Assembly (NCBI GenBank): GCA_035717985.1
Contig: DASTHW010000016.1
Span: 1,859 to 65,858, forward strand
Reading direction: 5' to 3'
Source of the DNA: Candidatus Saccharimonadales bacterium
GTDB lineage: Bacteria; Patescibacteriota; Saccharimonadia; Saccharimonadales; UBA10212
DNA length: 64,000 bases
Under the pieces are notes generated by a model. It was not told where the DNA came from and did not search any database. It was given only the letters and a program-made list of their open reading frames with translations. How positions within the stretch are numbered: the first letter of the stretch is position 1; the number at the start of each line of letters is the position of its first letter. The translations under genes and the position numbers were made by a program. Below are positions 6,228-39,528 of the stretch, piece after piece.

Positions 6228-7197
6228 TCAGCATAGCGTCGCCAAAAGAGTAAAAGCGGTACTTTTGAGTTATGGCGTGCTGGTAAATTTTGTGCAGTTC
6301 GTCAACTGAACCAAGGAAAGCCGCCACCAGCATTAAAAGAGTCGAGCGGGGTAGGTGAAAATTAGTTACTAGCGAGTCTACGTTCTTAAATTTATAACCG
6401 GGCGTTATAAAAATGTCTGTCGAGCCGCTAGCCTCGGTAAAAGGCCTATTTATGCTTTCAAGACAGCGAAGCGAGGTGGTACCGACGGCCGTAAGATGGC
6501 TCGACTTATTCAGCTGACTGGCCGCCTTAGCCGACAAAAAATAGTCCTCGGAATGCATCTTATGCTGGGAAATATCGTCAGACTTTACCGGCGCGAAAGT
6601 ACCCAGGCCAACGTGCAAAGTTAACCTAATGATATTGAACCTCCCGCCAAGCTCGGCTAATTGCCGACGCGTAAAGTGCAAGCCGGCCGTCGGCGCCGCC
6701 TTACTTCCTTGTGCCCGGGCGTAAACCGTCTGGTAGTCGGCGGCCAGTGATTCATCCGGCTTAATATAAGGCGGCAAGGGTGTTTGACGGTACTTATCCA
6801 GATCCGGGTCACCTAGCTCTTTACTCAGCTTTAAAGTGCGTACACCGTCGGCGTCTACGGCTAAAGTCTCCACTCTAAGAGCGCTGGCCGGTCGGGTGGT
6901 TTTACCGGGCAGGAACTCCTTGCCAGGGCGCACCAGCGCCCGAACAGTAAAATTATCGAGCGTTTCCAGAACAAAGACTTCAGTTGATCCAAAGCCTAGG
7001 CGGCACTTTTCAACTTTAGAATCATTCAGCACTAAACTGGTTTTATCCACTAAATATTTATCTAGATTATAAAAATGCTCATCTATGATCCGGCGGGTCT
7101 TGCGGTTGTAAACCAAAAGCCGGGCATGGTCTCTGGGGCGAACCGGCCGCTGGGCTATCAATCCGGCTGGCAGTTCAAAATCGAAATCGCTAAGCAT
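6220..7197 (-). CDS. queA: S-adenosylmethionine:tRNA ribosyltransferase-isomerase
   Basis: 325 aa. The N-terminus MLSDFDFELPAGLIAQRPVRPRDHARLLV and the motif TAGLHFT are typical of QueA. Confidence 0.9.
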   Translation of the reverse strand: MLSDFDFELPAGLIAQRPVRPRDHARLLVYNRKTRRIIDEHFYNLDKYLVDKTSLVLNDSKVEKCRLGFGSTEVFVLETLDNFTVRALVRPGKEFLPGKTTRPASALRVETLAVDADGVRTLKLSKELGDPDLDKYRQTPLPPYIKPDESLAADYQTVYARAQGSKAAPTAGLHFTRRQLAELGGRFNIIRLTLHVGLGTFAPVKSDDISQHKMHSEDYFLSAKAASQLNKSSHLTAVGTTSLRCLESINRPFTEASGSTDIFITPGYKFKNVDSLVTNFHLPRSTLLMLVAAFLGSVDELHKIYQHAITQKYRFYSFGDAMLII

Positions 7198-7457
7198 CTA
7201 GTAAGTAGTATATAAAACACCCTTAACCAGCCGGCAATTAAGTTATACTAGCCGGCTATAAATTTGAGTTATTGCATAGCCCCTAAATAGGACTATTATA
7301 AAAATTAATTGTTAATGCTAGTTCTCGCAAAAGCATTGGCTAGTACATCCTGGGAGAAAGGGGGTGATTTCGCTTTAGCCTTTGGGCGCTAAGTAACGTG
7401 CCCAGGGGTAGTTTCAAAAAAACAGCTCGGCAGTACCCGCTTGAAAGGGGGTCTACT

Positions 7458-7649
7458 GTGAACGGCAAAGCGGCCAAGGAGCTCCTCGACATCGAGGAGG
7501 CCGACGCCTGGCACGAATACCTCGAGGCCACCCACGGACAAGGCGAAGCTCGCTACCGCGAGATCGAGCCCTGGGCCTGGGCCCGGCTGAACAATCGCCT
7601 GCGGGCGATCCGTCAGCGCCGCACCAGGCTCAGCCCGGCGGCCGCCTAG
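7458..7649 (+). CDS. hypothetical 63-aa protein in GC-rich islet 2
   Basis: GTG start 6 nt after the SD gaaaggggg, in frame with track ORF 7398..7649. I counted 134 G+C in 192 nt (70%), with strongly G/C third positions. Sequence: VNGKAAKELLDIEEADAWHEYLEATHGQGEARYREIEPWAWARLNNRLRAIRQRRTRLSPAAA. Confidence 0.45.
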   Translation: MNGKAAKELLDIEEADAWHEYLEATHGQGEARYREIEPWAWARLNNRLRAIRQRRTRLSPAAA

Positions 7650-7667
7650 AAGCACCCGTTCCCCCAG

Positions 7668-7740
7668 CCATGCCCGGGCGTGCTGAAACCAGCACGCCCG
7701 GGCATGGCGCCCGCCTCTACTTACATGTAGAGGCGGGCGC
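7668..7740 (+). terminator. two tandem perfect GC-rich hairpins after the islet-2 ORF
   Basis: The first is an 18-bp perfect stem, ccatgcccgggcgtgctg / cagcacgcccgggcatgg, with loop aaac (7668-7707). The second is a 12-13-bp perfect stem, gcgcccgcctcta / tagaggcgggcgc (7707-7740). Neither has a U-tract. Confidence 0.55.
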
Positions 7741-7771
7741 AATCTTACCATTTCTGCGATAATAGCCATTG

Positions 7772-10981: not shown

Positions 10982-11012
10982 AAAAAGCTCCGGGCGTGCC
11001 CGGAGCTTTTCT
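10981..11012. terminator. bidirectional intrinsic terminator between convergent genes
   Basis: A-run, then stem agctccggg, loop cgtg, stem cccggagct, then a T-run. Confidence 0.75.
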
Positions 11013-12104: not shown

Positions 12105-12674
12105 ATGGCGTTTGAGGATTATAAAACCAAGAAATCGGTAGTTTTAGTTTATACCGGCGAAGGTAAGGGCAAGACCAGCGCCAGCGTTGGCCTGCTGGCC
12201 CGGGCGCTGGGCAATGGCTGGAGCGCCGCTTACGTGCAGTTTATAAAGACCTGGAACGTCGGCGAACATGACTTTATCAATAAAATTCAGCCAGTGTTTG
12301 GTAAAAAACTGCTGTTTTATAAAGGCGGTAAGGGCTTTTACGATGCCGGCGATTTGTCGGCTAAAGACGTCTCTGAGGCTGAACACAAGAAAGCGGCGGC
12401 TAGTACCTACAAGGTAGCTTATAAGGCGGCCACCAGCGGCAAATATGACCTGGTGATATGCGATGAAATCAATAATGCCGTCCATCATGGTCTAATCCCA
12501 ACTGACAGCATTGAAAAGCTAATAAACGACCGCGCCAGCAATACTAGCCTCTGTCTGACCGGCCGAGATTTCCCTAAGAAATATTTAAAATACGCCGATA
12601 TCGCTACCAACATGACCAAAATCAAGCACCATTTTGATAAGAAGTTCTTAGCTAATAAAGGCATAGATTTTTAA
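12105..12674 (+). CDS. cob(I)yrinic acid a,c-diamide adenosyltransferase (CobA/CobO/BtuR family)
   Basis: 189 aa with P-loop YTGEGKGKTSA, YDLVICDEINNAV, and a TGR motif. Confidence 0.8.
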   Translation: MAFEDYKTKKSVVLVYTGEGKGKTSASVGLLARALGNGWSAAYVQFIKTWNVGEHDFINKIQPVFGKKLLFYKGGKGFYDAGDLSAKDVSEAEHKKAAASTYKVAYKAATSGKYDLVICDEINNAVHHGLIPTDSIEKLINDRASNTSLCLTGRDFPKKYLKYADIATNMTKIKHHFDKKFLANKGIDF

Positions 12675-12739
12675 TCTACATTGACTTTGCTCTTTGGGTG
12701 GGTTAGCCAGTAGGCGTAACTTGCTTTAAAATCATTATT

Positions 12740-13585
12740 ATGGCTAAAGTGCCGGTCATGGCTGTTATCCCAGCCTATAACGCCGCTAAAACATTGCCAA
12801 AGCTGTTAGAGCAAATTTTACTTCAGGGTTATGATGGCATTTTCGTATTAGACGATGCTTCAACCGACAGGACTGTCAAAATTGCTGAAAAGTATTCTCC
12901 CCGAGTCAAAGTTATAAAAGGCAAAACTAATGTTGGCGCCGGCGCCAACCGTAACCGCATAATCGGGCAGGTAGCCCCAGACGTAATCATTCACTTTATC
13001 GACGCCGACGTACGGTTAGTGTCCAAAAATAACCCGGCCATTATCCGAGGTCTTGAGTGGAAAGCGGATACAGCTTACTACGGCGGGCTATTGCGCAACC
13101 CGGCCGGCGAACAAAATCCTTTTAACTTTGGCCCGCGGCCGTGCCTTGCCACCAGCCTGTCTTCCTCAATTCAGTACGGCCTCTGGCAGTTGTCTTATCG
13201 AGCGCCAAAACTGGCTAAAGTTTTAAGAAGCTCCCTTAATTTTTATTTAAAAAGTTGGCCCAATATTTTTAAACAACAAAAATTGCGGCAGGTTTTCTGG
13301 ACGGCCGAGTCAAATCTAATAATTAAAGCCGGCTTATTCCGGGAGCTGGGCGGTTATGATCCGCAGTTTCGCTACGGCGAGATTAATGATCTGGGGCTAC
13401 GGTTAGAGAAAGCCGGCTATAAAAGCTGGTTTTTACCCCAAGTGGATCTCCTACATACCTCGACCGACAACGTATATCTGCACATCAATGATAAAAGGAT
13501 AGCCCGGCGGCAATTAGTTAAAAAATACGGCCATACGATGTCTCTCTGGCCGTGGCTTTATAAAAAGAGATTGAATATTAAATAG
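12740..13585 (+). CDS. family 2 glycosyltransferase
   Basis: N-terminus VIPAYNAAKTL and VLDDASTD (DxD-type), typical of the GT-A fold. Confidence 0.8.
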   Translation: MAKVPVMAVIPAYNAAKTLPKLLEQILLQGYDGIFVLDDASTDRTVKIAEKYSPRVKVIKGKTNVGAGANRNRIIGQVAPDVIIHFIDADVRLVSKNNPAIIRGLEWKADTAYYGGLLRNPAGEQNPFNFGPRPCLATSLSSSIQYGLWQLSYRAPKLAKVLRSSLNFYLKSWPNIFKQQKLRQVFWTAESNLIIKAGLFRELGGYDPQFRYGEINDLGLRLEKAGYKSWFLPQVDLLHTSTDNVYLHINDKRIARRQLVKKYGHTMSLWPWLYKKRLNIK

Positions 13586-13590
13586 ATTTT

Positions 13591-13667
13591 CCGCACGGGG
13601 CGCTCCCGGCTGGGGCGCTAGCCCGTGCGGCGGTGGACGGAAGCCGAAGGTCCCTGCTTCCGTCCAC
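13591..13667. terminator. GC-rich hairpins between the GT2 gene and the islet-3 ORF
   Basis: ccgcacggg at 13591-13599 pairs with cccgtgcgg at 13622-13630. A perfect 11-bp stem, gtggacggaag / cttccgtccac, spans 13633-13667. Confidence 0.5.
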
Positions 13668-13710
13668 GTCTCGCTTTCCAGAGTGATGCCCGCTCGGCAG
13701 GGAGCTAGTG

Positions 13711-14079
13711 CTAGCGGCAATAGCTCTTATCGCGCCGGGCCCAGAGGCTAGCTTCCAGCGCCTGGCCTACCATGTCGGCCAGGTATTGGACCGTCATGGA
13801 GCTGTAGTGCTCGGGCGCTAGCCAGATCTCGAAGGGGTCCGAGTCACTGGCGGCCGGCCGGTGATGCAGTGAGCCCCAGCCGAACTCGGACTTCAGCTCG
13901 TACTCCATCTCCCGCCGTCGAAATTCATCCAACCGGTGGTCACCATTCAGGTGGACCCTCAGGATGATCGACGGCGGATGGAGGAACCGGTCCTTCAGAC
14001 GCTCCCAAGCGCCTACCGGCGGGTCGGGCTTGTCGACTTCGATAGTGAAGCCGCCGAAGTTGTACTCACGAATGACCAC
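13711..14079 (-). CDS. hypothetical 122-aa protein in GC-rich islet 3
   Basis: GTG start preceded by the SD ggaggtg. Codons are strongly G/C-ending. A 100-nt sample (13741-13840) has 63 G+C. No motif recognised. Confidence 0.55.
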   Translation of the reverse strand: MVIREYNFGGFTIEVDKPDPPVGAWERLKDRFLHPPSIILRVHLNGDHRLDEFRRREMEYELKSEFGWGSLHHRPAASDSDPFEIWLAPEHYSSMTVQYLADMVGQALEASLWARRDKSYCR

Positions 14080-14173
14080 TTGGGGGCCACCTCCTTACAG
14101 CCGAATAACTGCGTACCTTCCACAACTTGCTCTGTAAGCAGTATTATTTTAACATAAATTCTATTTTTTAGCA

Positions 14174-14776
14174 ATGACCCAGTATAGTAATGTTATGAAA
14201 TTTCACTGCCGTAAAAGCCTTAATTTAGCGATATTTATCTTGCTCTTAATTTTAATTGTAATTACGCAGTCTGGCTGGTTGGCTAGCCCGGCTAGAACTG
14301 TCAACCAGAGCCAGCCGGGCTTTTACAGCATTAGCCACTTTATAGACGGCGATACCATAGCCGTAAATATGAACGGTCAAATTGAAACTATCAGGATGAT
14401 AGGAGTTGATACGCCGGAGACTCACCGGCCCAATACGCCCGTGCAATGCTTTGGGCCGGAGGCGGCTAGCTATACTAAATCGCTGATTGGTGATAATCGG
14501 GTGCGCCTGCAGGCTGACCCGCTGGACACTAACCGGGACCGTTACGGCCGGCTACTACGCTATGTTTATCTGCCGGACGGCACAATGGTGGAGGATAAGC
14601 TAATAAGTCAGGGCTATGGTTTTGCTTATCTGGATTTTCCATTCAGCCAAAAGGCCCGCTTTGCCAGCGAGCAAAGCGCCGCCCAAGTTAAAAGAGCCGG
14701 CCTATGGGGCAAATGCAAGCCGATTGTTAACGATTACGGCGGCTGGACATCTAATCCGGCTTATCAAACTAATTGA
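14174..14776 (+). CDS. thermonuclease (staphylococcal nuclease-like) with N-terminal membrane anchor or signal
   Basis: SNase motifs DGDTIAV ... IRMIGVDTPE ... DRYGRLLRYVY. The hydrophobic N-terminus is LNLAIFILLLILIVI. The start may instead be the ATG at 14198. Confidence 0.8.
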   Translation: MTQYSNVMKFHCRKSLNLAIFILLLILIVITQSGWLASPARTVNQSQPGFYSISHFIDGDTIAVNMNGQIETIRMIGVDTPETHRPNTPVQCFGPEAASYTKSLIGDNRVRLQADPLDTNRDRYGRLLRYVYLPDGTMVEDKLISQGYGFAYLDFPFSQKARFASEQSAAQVKRAGLWGKCKPIVNDYGGWTSNPAYQTN

Positions 14777-34627: not shown

Positions 34628-34765
34628 TTACTCCCTACTATTGCGCCGGCGCCGGCCACCACCACTGGCTTTACCGCCTTCGCGGGCGACCCTCTCTCTG
34701 GTTTCTCTATCTGCGTCTGCTAAACCCCGATTAGAGTTAGAATCTGAATCATCCCTGTTAGCCAT
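34628..34765 (-). CDS. small KGG-repeat stress-induced protein (45 aa)
   Basis: My translation: MANRDDSDSNSNRGLADADRETRERVAREGGKASGGGRRRRNSRE. A strong SD (aaggaggtg) precedes the ATG. Confidence 0.55.
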   Translation of the reverse strand: MANRDDSDSNSNRGLADADRETRERVAREGGKASGGGRRRRNSRE

Positions 34766-34789
34766 GATTCACCTCCTTCTTAATTTACT

Positions 34790-35005
34790 TTACCGATTGT
34801 TGGAACGGCGACCACCGTGACTGTTCTTGCCACCCTCTACCTTGGCTGAACGCGGCTGAGCCTCGGCGCCTTTTTTACCGGCCTCACTCGGGTCGGCGCC
34901 GCCGGGCTTTCCAAACTGGCCTGGGCTGTTTCTGCCGCCCTCGCGGGCCGCTTCTTCGGTGTCGTCCCGGTTACCAAACTGGCCTGGGTTATTGCTGTCT
35001 GCCAT
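34790..35005 (-). CDS. KGG-repeat general stress protein (71 aa)
   Basis: Repeated NPGQFG / SPGQFG and EAGKKG / AREGG motifs, with the SD aaggaggg. Confidence 0.7.
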   Translation of the reverse strand: MADSNNPGQFGNRDDTEEAAREGGRNSPGQFGKPGGADPSEAGKKGAEAQPRSAKVEGGKNSHGGRRSNNR

Positions 35006-38646: not shown

Positions 38647-39471
38647 ATGCCTACTATTATTCCTAAAATTTTACTCGTCGAAGACGACAACAACCTGCGC
38701 GAAATTTTTGAAATGCGCCTGAAGGCCGAGGGCTACGACACCGTCACTGCCAGCGACGGTGAAGAAGCTCTAGTTACGGCTATGAAAGAAAAGCCGGACC
38801 TGATTATTGCCGACGTTATGATGCCTAAACTATCTGGTTTTGAAATGTTGGAGACACTTCGGGCTACCCCCGAAATGGCCGCCACCAAAACCATCATGAT
38901 GACGGCTCTTGGCCAGGCCGAGGATAGGGCTCGCGGTGAGCGGCTGGGCGTGATAAAGTATTTGGTGAAATCCCAAGTAACCTTGGAAGATTTCGTGCGT
39001 GTAGTCCGCGAGGTTATGGCGCCCTCATCAGAAGCGGCACCAGCTCCCGCTGTAAACAGCCCGGAGTCTAACCAAGCACAAAATAATAAAGAAAGCGAGG
39101 CCAAAGTGCCAGAAGATACATCAACTAACCCGCAGGCTGGGGACAACGCCAGCCAAGGTGTAAACCCAATGAGCGGCGCTCCTGCTGACGCTGGAGGCGA
39201 ATCAGCCGCCCAAGAACAAAGCGAGGTTCAAAGCCAAATTGATAATTTTGCGGCTAGCTCAAATGCTGGTGCCGCCGATGATACAGCGGCTCCCGCCGGT
39301 AGCGCTACAACTCCCGGCACCGATAGCGCCGCCCCGACAGGCGACTCCGGAACCGGCACAGACACAACCGGTCAGCCAGCCGTACCGCCGGTCACTCCAC
39401 CGGCCGATCCGGCTCCTCAGCCGCCAGCCGACTCAGGCCAGGCTCCAACCGACCAGGGCGGAACTATCTAA
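38647..39471 (+). CDS. response regulator receiver domain with long low-complexity Pro/Ala/Thr/Gly-rich tail (no DNA-binding domain seen)
   Basis: LLVEDD ... DLIIADVMMPKLSG ... KYLVK. The C-terminal roughly 150 aa are compositionally biased. Confidence 0.85.
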   Translation: MPTIIPKILLVEDDNNLREIFEMRLKAEGYDTVTASDGEEALVTAMKEKPDLIIADVMMPKLSGFEMLETLRATPEMAATKTIMMTALGQAEDRARGERLGVIKYLVKSQVTLEDFVRVVREVMAPSSEAAPAPAVNSPESNQAQNNKESEAKVPEDTSTNPQAGDNASQGVNPMSGAPADAGGESAAQEQSEVQSQIDNFAASSNAGAADDTAAPAGSATTPGTDSAAPTGDSGTGTDTTGQPAVPPVTPPADPAPQPPADSGQAPTDQGGTI

Positions 39472-39490
39472 ATAAAAGCGAAGTTCAACT

Positions 39491-39528
39491 AAAACGGGCG
39501 CGAAAGGGAAAACCCGGCGCCCGTTTTT
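39491..39528 (+). terminator. intrinsic terminator after the response regulator gene
   Basis: aaaacgggcgc, loop, gcgcccgttttt. Confidence 0.7.

Follow-up and report, generated by a model that had tools for sequence, protein, structure and literature searches.

A GC-rich islet with a single gene

The window analysed here, a stretch of 64,000 nucleotides from contig DASTHW010000016.1 of a Candidatus Saccharimonadales bacterium, carries a GC-rich islet between a glycosyltransferase gene and a divergently oriented gene for an SNase-family nuclease. The islet holds one small gene (p122) and no companion gene (Table 1). It recurs in the same slot of another lineage and in a second slot for which empty-site alleles exist, and its hairpin stem and promoter motif travel with it. 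The islet is probably a self-contained accessory unit, one of a small set of homologous GC-rich mini-islets that Saccharimonadales gain, lose, and exchange with one another.

Table 1. Features of the p122 islet (positions in the window unless another locus is named)
Feature	Position	Strand	Description and evidence
p122 gene	13711..14079	-	122-aa open reading frame, GTG start; reading-frame list, homolog alignment, composition
Shine-Dalgarno sequence	14083..14091	-	AAGGAGGTG, 8 nt 5' of the p122 GTG; read from sequence
Predicted p122 promoter	14146..14174	-	TTGCTA, 17 nt, TG-extended TAAAAT; prediction and motif comparison
Hairpin 1	13633-13644/13656-13667	-	12-bp perfect stem GTGGACGGAAGC/GCTTCCGTCCAC, 11-nt loop
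Hairpin 2	13591-13599/13622-13630	-	9-bp perfect outer stem plus inner stem; abuts islet boundary
Left islet boundary	13582..13590	+	9-mer ATAGATTTT; overlaps GT2 stop codon, abuts hairpin 2
SNase-family nuclease gene	14174..14776	+	PF00565, E 7e-21; N-terminal hydrophobic segment; conserved syntenic core gene outside the cassette
Repeat bounding g94, locus L040	525-549, 820-844		GAAAGGAnnnnnATGGCAACGA
Repeat bounding g94, locus L047	2979-3003		GAAAGGAnnnnnATGGCAACGA

The open reading frame (ORF) of p122 has a GC content of 0.62 (0.64, 0.42, and 0.80 at the first, second, and third codon positions). Its third-position value (GC3) is the only one in the window above 0.68 and corresponds to a z-score of about +5.9 relative to the 46 long ORFs of the window (mean 0.539, standard deviation 0.045). 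A first-pass annotation, made from the letters of the window, had described a GC3-rich ORF of this extent with a GTG start and a Shine-Dalgarno sequence, separated by a divergent 94-bp spacer from the nuclease gene (ATG at 14174) and flanked by a glycosyltransferase gene on the other side; all of this was borne out, the glycosyltransferase falling into GT2 (PF00535). Pfam assigns the neighbours of p122 to cobA, GT2, SNase, and GT4; they include no phage genes, and there is no integrase among the seven neighbouring proteins scanned. The window contains no paralog of p122, and its GC-rich islets share no common sequence. At gathering threshold, Rfam recognizes two tRNAs in the whole window and nothing credible at E≤10 in the GC-rich stretch 13400-14300, where ARAGORN found neither tRNA nor tmRNA.

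The first ATG of the nuclease gene overlaps the predicted -35 element of the p122 promoter. In alignments with its orthologs, the nuclease is matched only beyond residues 8-15, which makes Met8 (14195) a possible true start; the signal or anchor segment would then be MKFHCRKSLNLAIFILLL….

A small protein family endemic to Saccharimonadales

The product of p122 is identical to NCBI entry HET9850747.1 ("hypothetical protein VFP35_03970"), which stems from a metagenome-assembled genome of Candidatus Saccharimonadales. A word-indexed search of 5.8 billion clusters (90% identity) returned p122 itself as the sole match, and phmmer, run exhaustively against 1.84 billion representative proteins, retrieved three relatives: P0002 (43% identity, E 9e-16), P0003 (30%, E 8e-9), and P0004 (30%, E 1e-7). 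With profile searches, P0005 and a tandem paralog of 147 aa (P0006, encoded by g147) came to light, and cluster tables yielded the close variants P0007-P0009. Taken together, the phmmer, profile, and cluster searches define a family of about six proteins (P family). Extending the profile by the paralog brought in no new member, and a metagenome scan for further members re-found the contigs bearing P0003 and P0005 and no others.

The members align over their full length from Met1, with which the GTG of p122 coincides in all relatives. Sixteen residues are invariant, most of them aromatic, aliphatic, proline, or glycine (F11, V15, P18, W25, F32-L33-H34-P35, L44, R55, L62, E65-F66-G67, W86, and Y92). 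Unlike the adjoining nuclease, p122 lacks an N-terminal membrane or signal segment; it is soluble and mildly acidic (pI 5.8; 4.9-5.8 across the family). The coding signature GC1>GC2<<GC3 is seen throughout the family, with GC3 values of 0.80-0.87.

Every member with a checkable origin resides in Saccharimonadales, and neither the 1.84 billion representatives nor the 5.8 billion clusters contain a homolog outside Saccharimonadales-type contigs. The synteny of two loci (L040 and L047) and the NrdR of a third (L048), which clusters at ≥90% identity with proteins assigned by NCBI to Ca. Saccharimonadales, suggest that on present data the whole family is endemic to this order. There was no match to the family by tblastn in phage and plasmid collections, in INPHARED or BFVD, or in PHROGs for the members scanned. 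A viral origin via IMG/VR was rejected, as the single match (L046) was a chance resemblance over 33 residues of a tail-collar protein. This 259-aa tail-fibre/tail-collar-like ORF (L046, 7587-8366) has the motif TWERLKDRFL in common with residues 24-33 of p122 and illustrates that scans with degenerate patterns can mislead.

The endemism also bears on the source of the islet. The first-pass annotation had pointed to Actinomycetota, and a recent capture from such a high-GC host, perhaps through the competence of an epibiont, would fit a GC3 of 0.80, which corresponds to a donor of about 62-66% GC, and the hairpins without a U-tract, which are often described in high-GC Actinobacteria. Nevertheless, such a capture is highly improbable: the clusters and representatives searched hold no homolog from elsewhere, the family occurs in several Saccharimonadales genomes, some of which have a native GC3 of 0.73-0.78, and the unit includes the same AT-rich promoter motif as all other Saccharimonadales islets.

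Nor does p122 fall into a well-known family, native to Patescibacteria or otherwise, in Pfam, NCBIfam, PADLOC, PHROGs, PDB, or Foldseek. At E≤1, P0001-P0005 matched none of the Barstar, NuiA, colicin-immunity, or Imm/SUKH profiles of Pfam, and the paralog encoded by g147 had no Pfam match; P0001, the sole member scanned against NCBIfam and PADLOC, had no match in either, and a profile search of PDB sequences gave nothing below E 0.5. A full-text literature search on horizontal gene transfer and GC islands in Saccharibacteria yielded nothing specific to such islets. The earlier description of a foreign islet with a near-orphan gene thus holds, in that p122 is a compositional outlier in a variable slot and the family and structure libraries are negative.

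The islet occupies two chromosomal slots

The nuclease gene was used as a probe for orthologous loci, which yielded 39 loci from GTDB species representatives. All except one match at 49-73% identity, and 37 of these 38 are syntenic and were taken as Saccharimonadales-type; the remaining locus (L039; 43% identity, titled Spirochaetaceae) lacks synteny. The common gene order is helicase, MIP, grx, cobA, a gap, SNase, and, further downstream, o388. The gap between cobA and SNase ranges from 15 bp to 2.8 kb among the 39 genomes and has unrelated contents, and none of the 39 loci harbors a relative of p122 (best tblastn E 0.84).

The same gap is occupied in locus L040, where P0002 and two further small genes (g92 and g94) are all oriented towards cobA and away from SNase (cobA-> <-P0002 <-g92 <-g94 | ->SNase). 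The three genes have a GC content of 0.64 and GC3 values of 0.82-0.85, against a background of 0.45-0.52 in the flanks. In L047, a strain variant from the same assembly, the islet consists of g92 and P0007 only. The gene g94, which is present in L040 and absent from L047, is bounded by a repeat of about 25 nt that covers the Shine-Dalgarno sequence and the first codons; the difference resembles the gain or loss of a modular cassette by recombination between ribosome-binding and start regions.

A second slot lies in the region g156–trx89–IleRS–L21, where P0003, P0004 (beside its paralog g147), and P0005 are located on contigs that carry no SNase gene. In L048-L051, whose trx89 genes are ≥90% identical, g156 and trx89 are separated by a spacer of merely 78 bp, which represents the empty site; at the same point, L043 has an insert of 1,040 bp with P0005, a 32-aa basic ORF, g93, and two hairpins. 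The very basic 32-aa ORF (MARTPRESKKALRDAIVQQGYKKAKRKRRKKR) lies directly 3' of P0005 and P0003 (L043, 1112-1210; L041, about 6690-6785). Its nucleotide identity between L041 and L043 (about 94%) is far above that of the neighbouring P gene, and a 1-nt indel near the start in L041 makes the start position ambiguous. Overall, the islets contain one to three genes, and the partners of the P gene vary from islet to islet (g92 and g94; g147; the 32-aa basic ORF and g93).

The first-pass annotation had offered, as a speculation, that p122 might be a nuclease inhibitor or immunity protein. A dedicated inhibitor of the adjoining secreted SNase, co-regulated from the 94-bp divergent promoter region, would be consistent with the divergent, closely spaced arrangement in the window, L040, and L047, and with a small, acidic, cytoplasmic product reminiscent of barstar-type inhibitors. 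The search for co-occurrence with SNase-like genes speaks against it: the orthologous nuclease loci lack the gene throughout, the P family also inhabits the g156–trx89 slot, where there is no SNase, and other genes stand between the P gene and SNase in L040 (g92 and g94) and L047 (g92). Moreover, the family matches none of the inhibitor and immunity profiles named above, and one hot spot of insertion that the loci share, the 3' end of cobA, accounts for the adjacency. A dedicated SNase inhibitor is therefore not supported and hardly credible.

A promoter motif and a tandem hairpin module accompany the gene

An extended -10 motif, TGTTnTAAAAT[AT], precedes every islet (window, L040, L041, L042, and L043). 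In the predicted 5' untranslated region of p122, CUGCUUACAG pairs at 9 of 10 positions with the segment CUGUAAGGAG, which includes the Shine-Dalgarno sequence (14091-14100 and 14132-14141); this pairing could mask translation, or be a matter of chance in a short region.

The other end of the unit is formed by two hairpins. GC hairpins had already been noted at 13591-13667; there are indeed two, both with perfect stems, although the longest stem comprises 12 bp rather than the 11 bp given at first. A direct repeat (GGGGCGCT) that was noted at 13597-13604 and 13612-13619 is present and lies inside hairpin 2, and no separate meaning is attached to it. The 141-nt region 3' of p122 has a predicted folding energy of -66.1 kcal/mol (z = -4.0), and only one of 200 shuffled sequences folds as well. 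The layout is alike in the window and in L040, with the stop codon followed by about 35-45 nt, hairpin 1, a spacer of 2-4 nt, hairpin 2, and the boundary, and the tandem module is common to all complete islets. The native terminators of the window differ in having an A-tract, a stem, and a T-tract (e.g., 10983-11010).

The stems of hairpin 1 are homologous between the window (GTGGACGGAAGC/GCTTCCGTCCAC) and L040 (GCGGACGGAGG/CCTCCGTCCGC) and differ by compensatory changes (T:A to C:G and A:T to G:C), which reveals covariation of the paired positions. The core G[CT]GGACG…CGTCC[AG]C was looked for in 577 kb of fetched sequence and occurs there exclusively at the 3' ends of P-family islets (window, L040/L047, and L043/L044), whereas shuffled sequences average 0.34 matches. 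In L042, a related stem (GGGCGGAAGC) is found, and hairpin 2 is 96% identical to that of L043. Since promoter motif and hairpin stem accompany islets in different slots, the mobile unit appears to be composed of the promoter, one or more ORFs, and the tandem hairpins. The hairpins probably terminate transcription and insulate the unit against the convergent genes cobA and GT2, and stabilize the mRNA; the conservation of the stem across slots leaves room for a possible role as a recognition site.

Homologous islets in other genomes show the same three elements, namely the anomalous composition, the hairpin module, and the protein, so that the feature as a whole is more than a chance finding.

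The islet probably predates the neighbouring glycosyltransferase gene

The left boundary of the islet lies at 13582-13590; in L040 and L047, cobA directly abuts the hairpins. The 9-mer at the boundary (ATAGATTTT) is a copy of the nine bases with which the cobA coding sequence ends (12663-12671). The plus strand of the 64-kb window contains only these two copies, which flank the GT2 gene. This duplicate points to an insertion of the GT2 segment (about 12672-13590; about 0.9 kb) between cobA and a pre-existing islet. In the simplest reading of the sequences, the islet would first have been positioned against cobA, as in L040, and GT2 would have arrived later, by an event involving a 9-bp duplication or microhomology. 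Relatives of GT2 are located downstream of SNase in L002, L022, and L047.

Evolutionary tempo and probable exchange among genomes

P0003 and P0005 differ at 28% of their 354 nucleotides without a single indel, whereas the adjoining intergenic DNA has indels. Between the same loci (L041 and L043), the P genes have a synonymous divergence (dS) of 0.46 and a non-synonymous divergence (dN) of 0.335 (ω = 0.73), as opposed to a dS of 0.48 and a dN of 0.015 (ω = 0.03) for the adjacent trx89. Although both genes are of the same age by dS, the P gene accumulates non-synonymous changes about 20 times faster, and with a nucleotide identity of 71.5% it diverges even faster than conserved non-coding stretches in its flanks. 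Along the protein, ω rises from about 0.5 (N-terminal half) to ≥0.8 (C-terminal third); a single sliding window exceeds 1 (residues 73-97, ω = 2.3), with counts too small to claim positive selection. In the close pair L040/L047 (P0002 and P0007), non-synonymous changes are under-represented (ω = 0.32, p 0.03), and the combination with the co-islet gene g92 gives a p value of 5e-4 for purifying selection.

These results bear on the alternative that p122 is a decaying, functionless remnant of foreign high-GC DNA in which the frame has stayed open fortuitously, GC-rich sequence having few stop codons. The ω values of 0.5-0.75 in the deeper comparisons, the lack of L040's companion genes in the window copy, and the absence of known domains would all be compatible with decay. 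This is nonetheless unlikely, given that the ORF is intact, of similar length, and provided with the same Met start in at least six lineages down to 30% identity, has kept 16 invariant residues of a kind typical of protein cores, remains free of indels next to non-coding DNA that has acquired them, and is under significant purifying selection in the close pair. Shine-Dalgarno sequence and promoter motif are likewise retained, and the fold is predicted with good confidence considering how shallow the alignment is (see "Predicted fold and function"). The p122 ORF is a gene that encodes a real, foldable, and rapidly evolving protein of a tiny, lineage-restricted family.

There are two indications that the islet has been exchanged. 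In the comparison of L040 with L047, the dS of the islet is 0.10 (14 of 144 sites), whereas that of the flanking genes cobA and SNase is 0.26-0.43 (41 of 158 sites; p 3e-4), which suggests a more recent common ancestor of the islet, i.e., exchange; a strong GC3 bias could also lower dS. In addition, the islet is absent from L005 and L009, whose cobA is 81% identical to that of the window, but present in the more distant L040 (72%), which implies either a gain by transfer or many losses. The second-slot genomes have a native GC3 of 0.73-0.78, from which their P genes deviate mildly; the deviation is strong in the window and L040 genomes, which have a GC content of about 50%. Deviant composition, patchy distribution, empty sites, and discordant dS (with the caveat of codon bias) agree with what is expected of a horizontally exchanged islet.

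Vertical descent of a native gene, with GC-biased conversion or codon selection sustaining GC3 and a low dS and with repeated losses elsewhere, would explain the similarity of the window and L040 in slot, orientation, and hairpin module. The equal dS of P0003/P0005 and trx89 indicates vertical descent within that particular clade. As an account of the entire distribution, vertical descent is rather unlikely: it demands many independent losses (all 39 other loci, including closer relatives), a mechanism that holds GC3 about 0.3 above background over a saturated divergence, and an explanation for the unit in a second, unrelated slot. As to the GC richness itself, local GC-biased conversion is the main alternative origin.

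Predicted fold and function

The structure prediction proposed at the outset gave a compact α/β fold: AlphaFold2 models p122 with the topology β-β-α-β-α-(β)-β-α, at a mean predicted local distance difference test (pLDDT) score of 69.6 from the single sequence, and of 77.4 with a predicted template modeling score (pTM) of 0.67 from five sequences. Foldseek found no significant match to the model in PDB or BFVD. There is a recurrent weak resemblance to α/β proteins of the type III secretion chaperone kind (CesT/ExsC/SrcA type; TM-score 0.38-0.44), which is a lead only.

The P gene is the one gene that every islet has, and in the window islet it has no companion, so its product should act on its own. 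The proteins of the family are small, soluble, and mildly acidic, combine a conserved hydrophobic core with a fast-changing remainder, include a tandem paralog, and have a patchy, transferable distribution, all of which are traits of orphan immunity or anti-conflict proteins that bind a variable partner. By analogy, p122 might tentatively be viewed as such a protein, a lone cytoplasmic binder or neutralizer; this is the favoured mechanism, though one proposed with low confidence. Such a role would explain the rapid evolution of the surface, the tandem paralog, and the patchy distribution.

Two other assignments were rejected. A HUH (Y1) transposase or an element of the IS200-IS605 or PATE type does not fit, as the family lacks a HUH motif and has only one invariant histidine (in FLHP), Y1_Tnp of Pfam gives no match, TnpA/RAYT structures are absent from the Foldseek matches, and conserved hairpins are present at the 3' end only. 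A type II toxin–antitoxin pair was dismissed because p122 is solitary in the window, the partners of the P gene change between islets, and P-family proteins have no toxin–antitoxin domains.

Probable origin and movement of the islet

Several points weigh against the view that the islet is an exchanged accessory unit with a binder-like product. The ω of 0.73 for P0003/P0005 is not significantly below 1 (p 0.22); relaxed constraint and diversifying selection are inseparable, and the family is too small for codon-model tests. Biased gene conversion or codon selection could keep GC3 high and at the same time depress dS, which would weaken the case for recent exchange. An origin of the window and L040 islets in a single ancient insertion would not explain why their GC3 is undiminished. 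Integrase, transposase, and phage genes are all lacking from the unit, which leaves the mechanism of transfer unproven. Neither hairpin of the window has a U-tract 3' of its stem, and a terminator scan called none. Several of the homolog contigs are short and unbinned, and their attribution to Saccharimonadales was made by synteny (L040 and L047) and one NrdR cluster (L048). Finally, the fold of p122 has no significant match, which makes the binder or immunity role one by analogy.

An exchanged accessory unit remains the favoured explanation. The unit would consist of an AT-rich extended -10 promoter, a strong Shine-Dalgarno sequence, one GC3-rich ORF, and the tandem hairpin module. Such islets would move among Saccharimonadales of soil and rhizosphere at a few hot spots between conserved genes, with the 3' end of cobA, facing SNase, as the putative hot spot of the window. 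Their source may be a higher-GC gene pool of Saccharimonadales or an unseen mobile element of these bacteria, and since no recombinase is attached, the islets probably move through uptake of DNA and its recombination.

The reduced genomes of Saccharimonadales (TM7), which are ultra-small epibionts, have few variable slots, and what is kept in these is therefore informative about the lifestyle of the group. The p122 islet provides a well-bounded example, in which an endemic, fast-evolving family moves together with its own promoter and hairpins between genomes and between slots.

Relation to known kinds of accessory elements

As an accessory ORFan cassette at a hot spot of the genome, the islet belongs to a known kind and is moron-like in architecture; its protein family has no known relatives. 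The morons of phages, according to Hendrix and colleagues, are reportedly independent units of promoter, ORF, and terminator with a deviant base composition, situated between conserved genes. The p122 unit resembles them in having a single small ORF of sharply deviant composition with a predicted promoter and hairpins of its own, which lies between conserved syntenic genes and is present in some relatives and absent from others. By contrast, it occupies a hot spot in a bacterial chromosome, with no phage genes nearby and no viral homologs.

Flexible genomic islets offer another parallel: what lies between cobA and SNase is unrelated from genome to genome (39 genomes), mobility genes are not required, and both slots are occupied in some genomes and islet-free in others, with the empty-site alleles seen directly in the g156–trx89 slot. 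However, the p122 unit brings its promoter motif and the GYGGACG hairpin into two slots, a pattern that simple flank-mediated replacement does not predict. With orphan immunity genes, the P family shares small, acidic, cytoplasmic products, rapid non-synonymous evolution, tandem paralogs (P0004 and g147), variable arrays, horizontal spread, and the lack of a cognate toxin in cis; it has no match in sequence or fold to immunity families and no known toxin partner, which limits the analogy to function.

Integron cassettes are similar in that a short ORF is followed by an inverted repeat, the number of cassettes varies, and the gain or loss of g94 is bounded by short repeats. Unlike these cassettes, the P unit has a promoter motif of its own, its stems are perfect and lack the extrahelical bases of attC, and there is neither a GTTRRRY core at either boundary nor an intI gene among the seven neighbouring proteins scanned. 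An identity of the islet hairpins with integron attC sites was rejected because of the missing core.

It is a rather doubtful proposition that the GC3-rich mini-islets of this genome and its relatives, each a compact unit of promoter, ORF(s), and tandem hairpins, constitute an undescribed gene-cassette system of Saccharimonadales. In such a system, the hairpin GYGGACG…CGTCCRC would be a recognition or recombination site and not a mere terminator, insertion would take place at the 3' ends or junctions of core genes, modules would be shuffled, and the fast-evolving small proteins would serve in conflicts between symbiont and host or among symbionts. Candidates are the p122 islet (P gene), a second islet of the window with an "EPWAW" gene, and the array g94–g92–P0002 of L040. 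Evidence that the protein functions in conflict or immunity, or that the hairpin serves as a site of recombination, would point to a way in which cassettes move within the candidate phyla radiation.

Other GC-rich patches of the window

The second islet (7398-7760; GC up to 0.715 over 200 nt) has the same architecture as the p122 islet. A small ORF (7398/7458-7649; GC3 0.79) that contains …EYLEATHGQGEARYREIEPWAWARLNNRLRAIRQR is followed by two tandem hairpins, one with a perfect stem of 19 bp (7667-7708) and one with a stem of 17 nt (7704-7743), and the module ends about 25 nt 5' of the helicase start. A homolog of this ORF (42% identity over 50 aa) is convergent to cobA in L009 (4055-4432), which is the hot spot occupied by p122 in the window.

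A third patch (1501-1850; GC up to 0.70 over 200 nt) lies directly 5' of an Hsp20 gene (1899-2282) and lacks a convincing ORF: there are several overlapping frames rich in arginine and proline and a basic ORF of 41 aa (1582-1707; GC3 0.86). The patch contains one 10-bp GC hairpin (1733-1756) and has no match in Rfam. Another GC-rich patch, on the minus strand at 34628-35005, consists of two adjoining ORFs (45 and 71 aa) rich in glycine, arginine, and asparagine (…GGRNSPGQFGKPGG…GGKNSHGGRRSNNR), which by their appearance we take to resemble KGG-repeat stress-protein-like peptides. The patch at 39151-39500 (GC 0.695) is not an islet; it encodes the low-complexity C-terminal tail, rich in alanine, proline, threonine, and glycine, of a response-regulator-like ORF (38647-39471).

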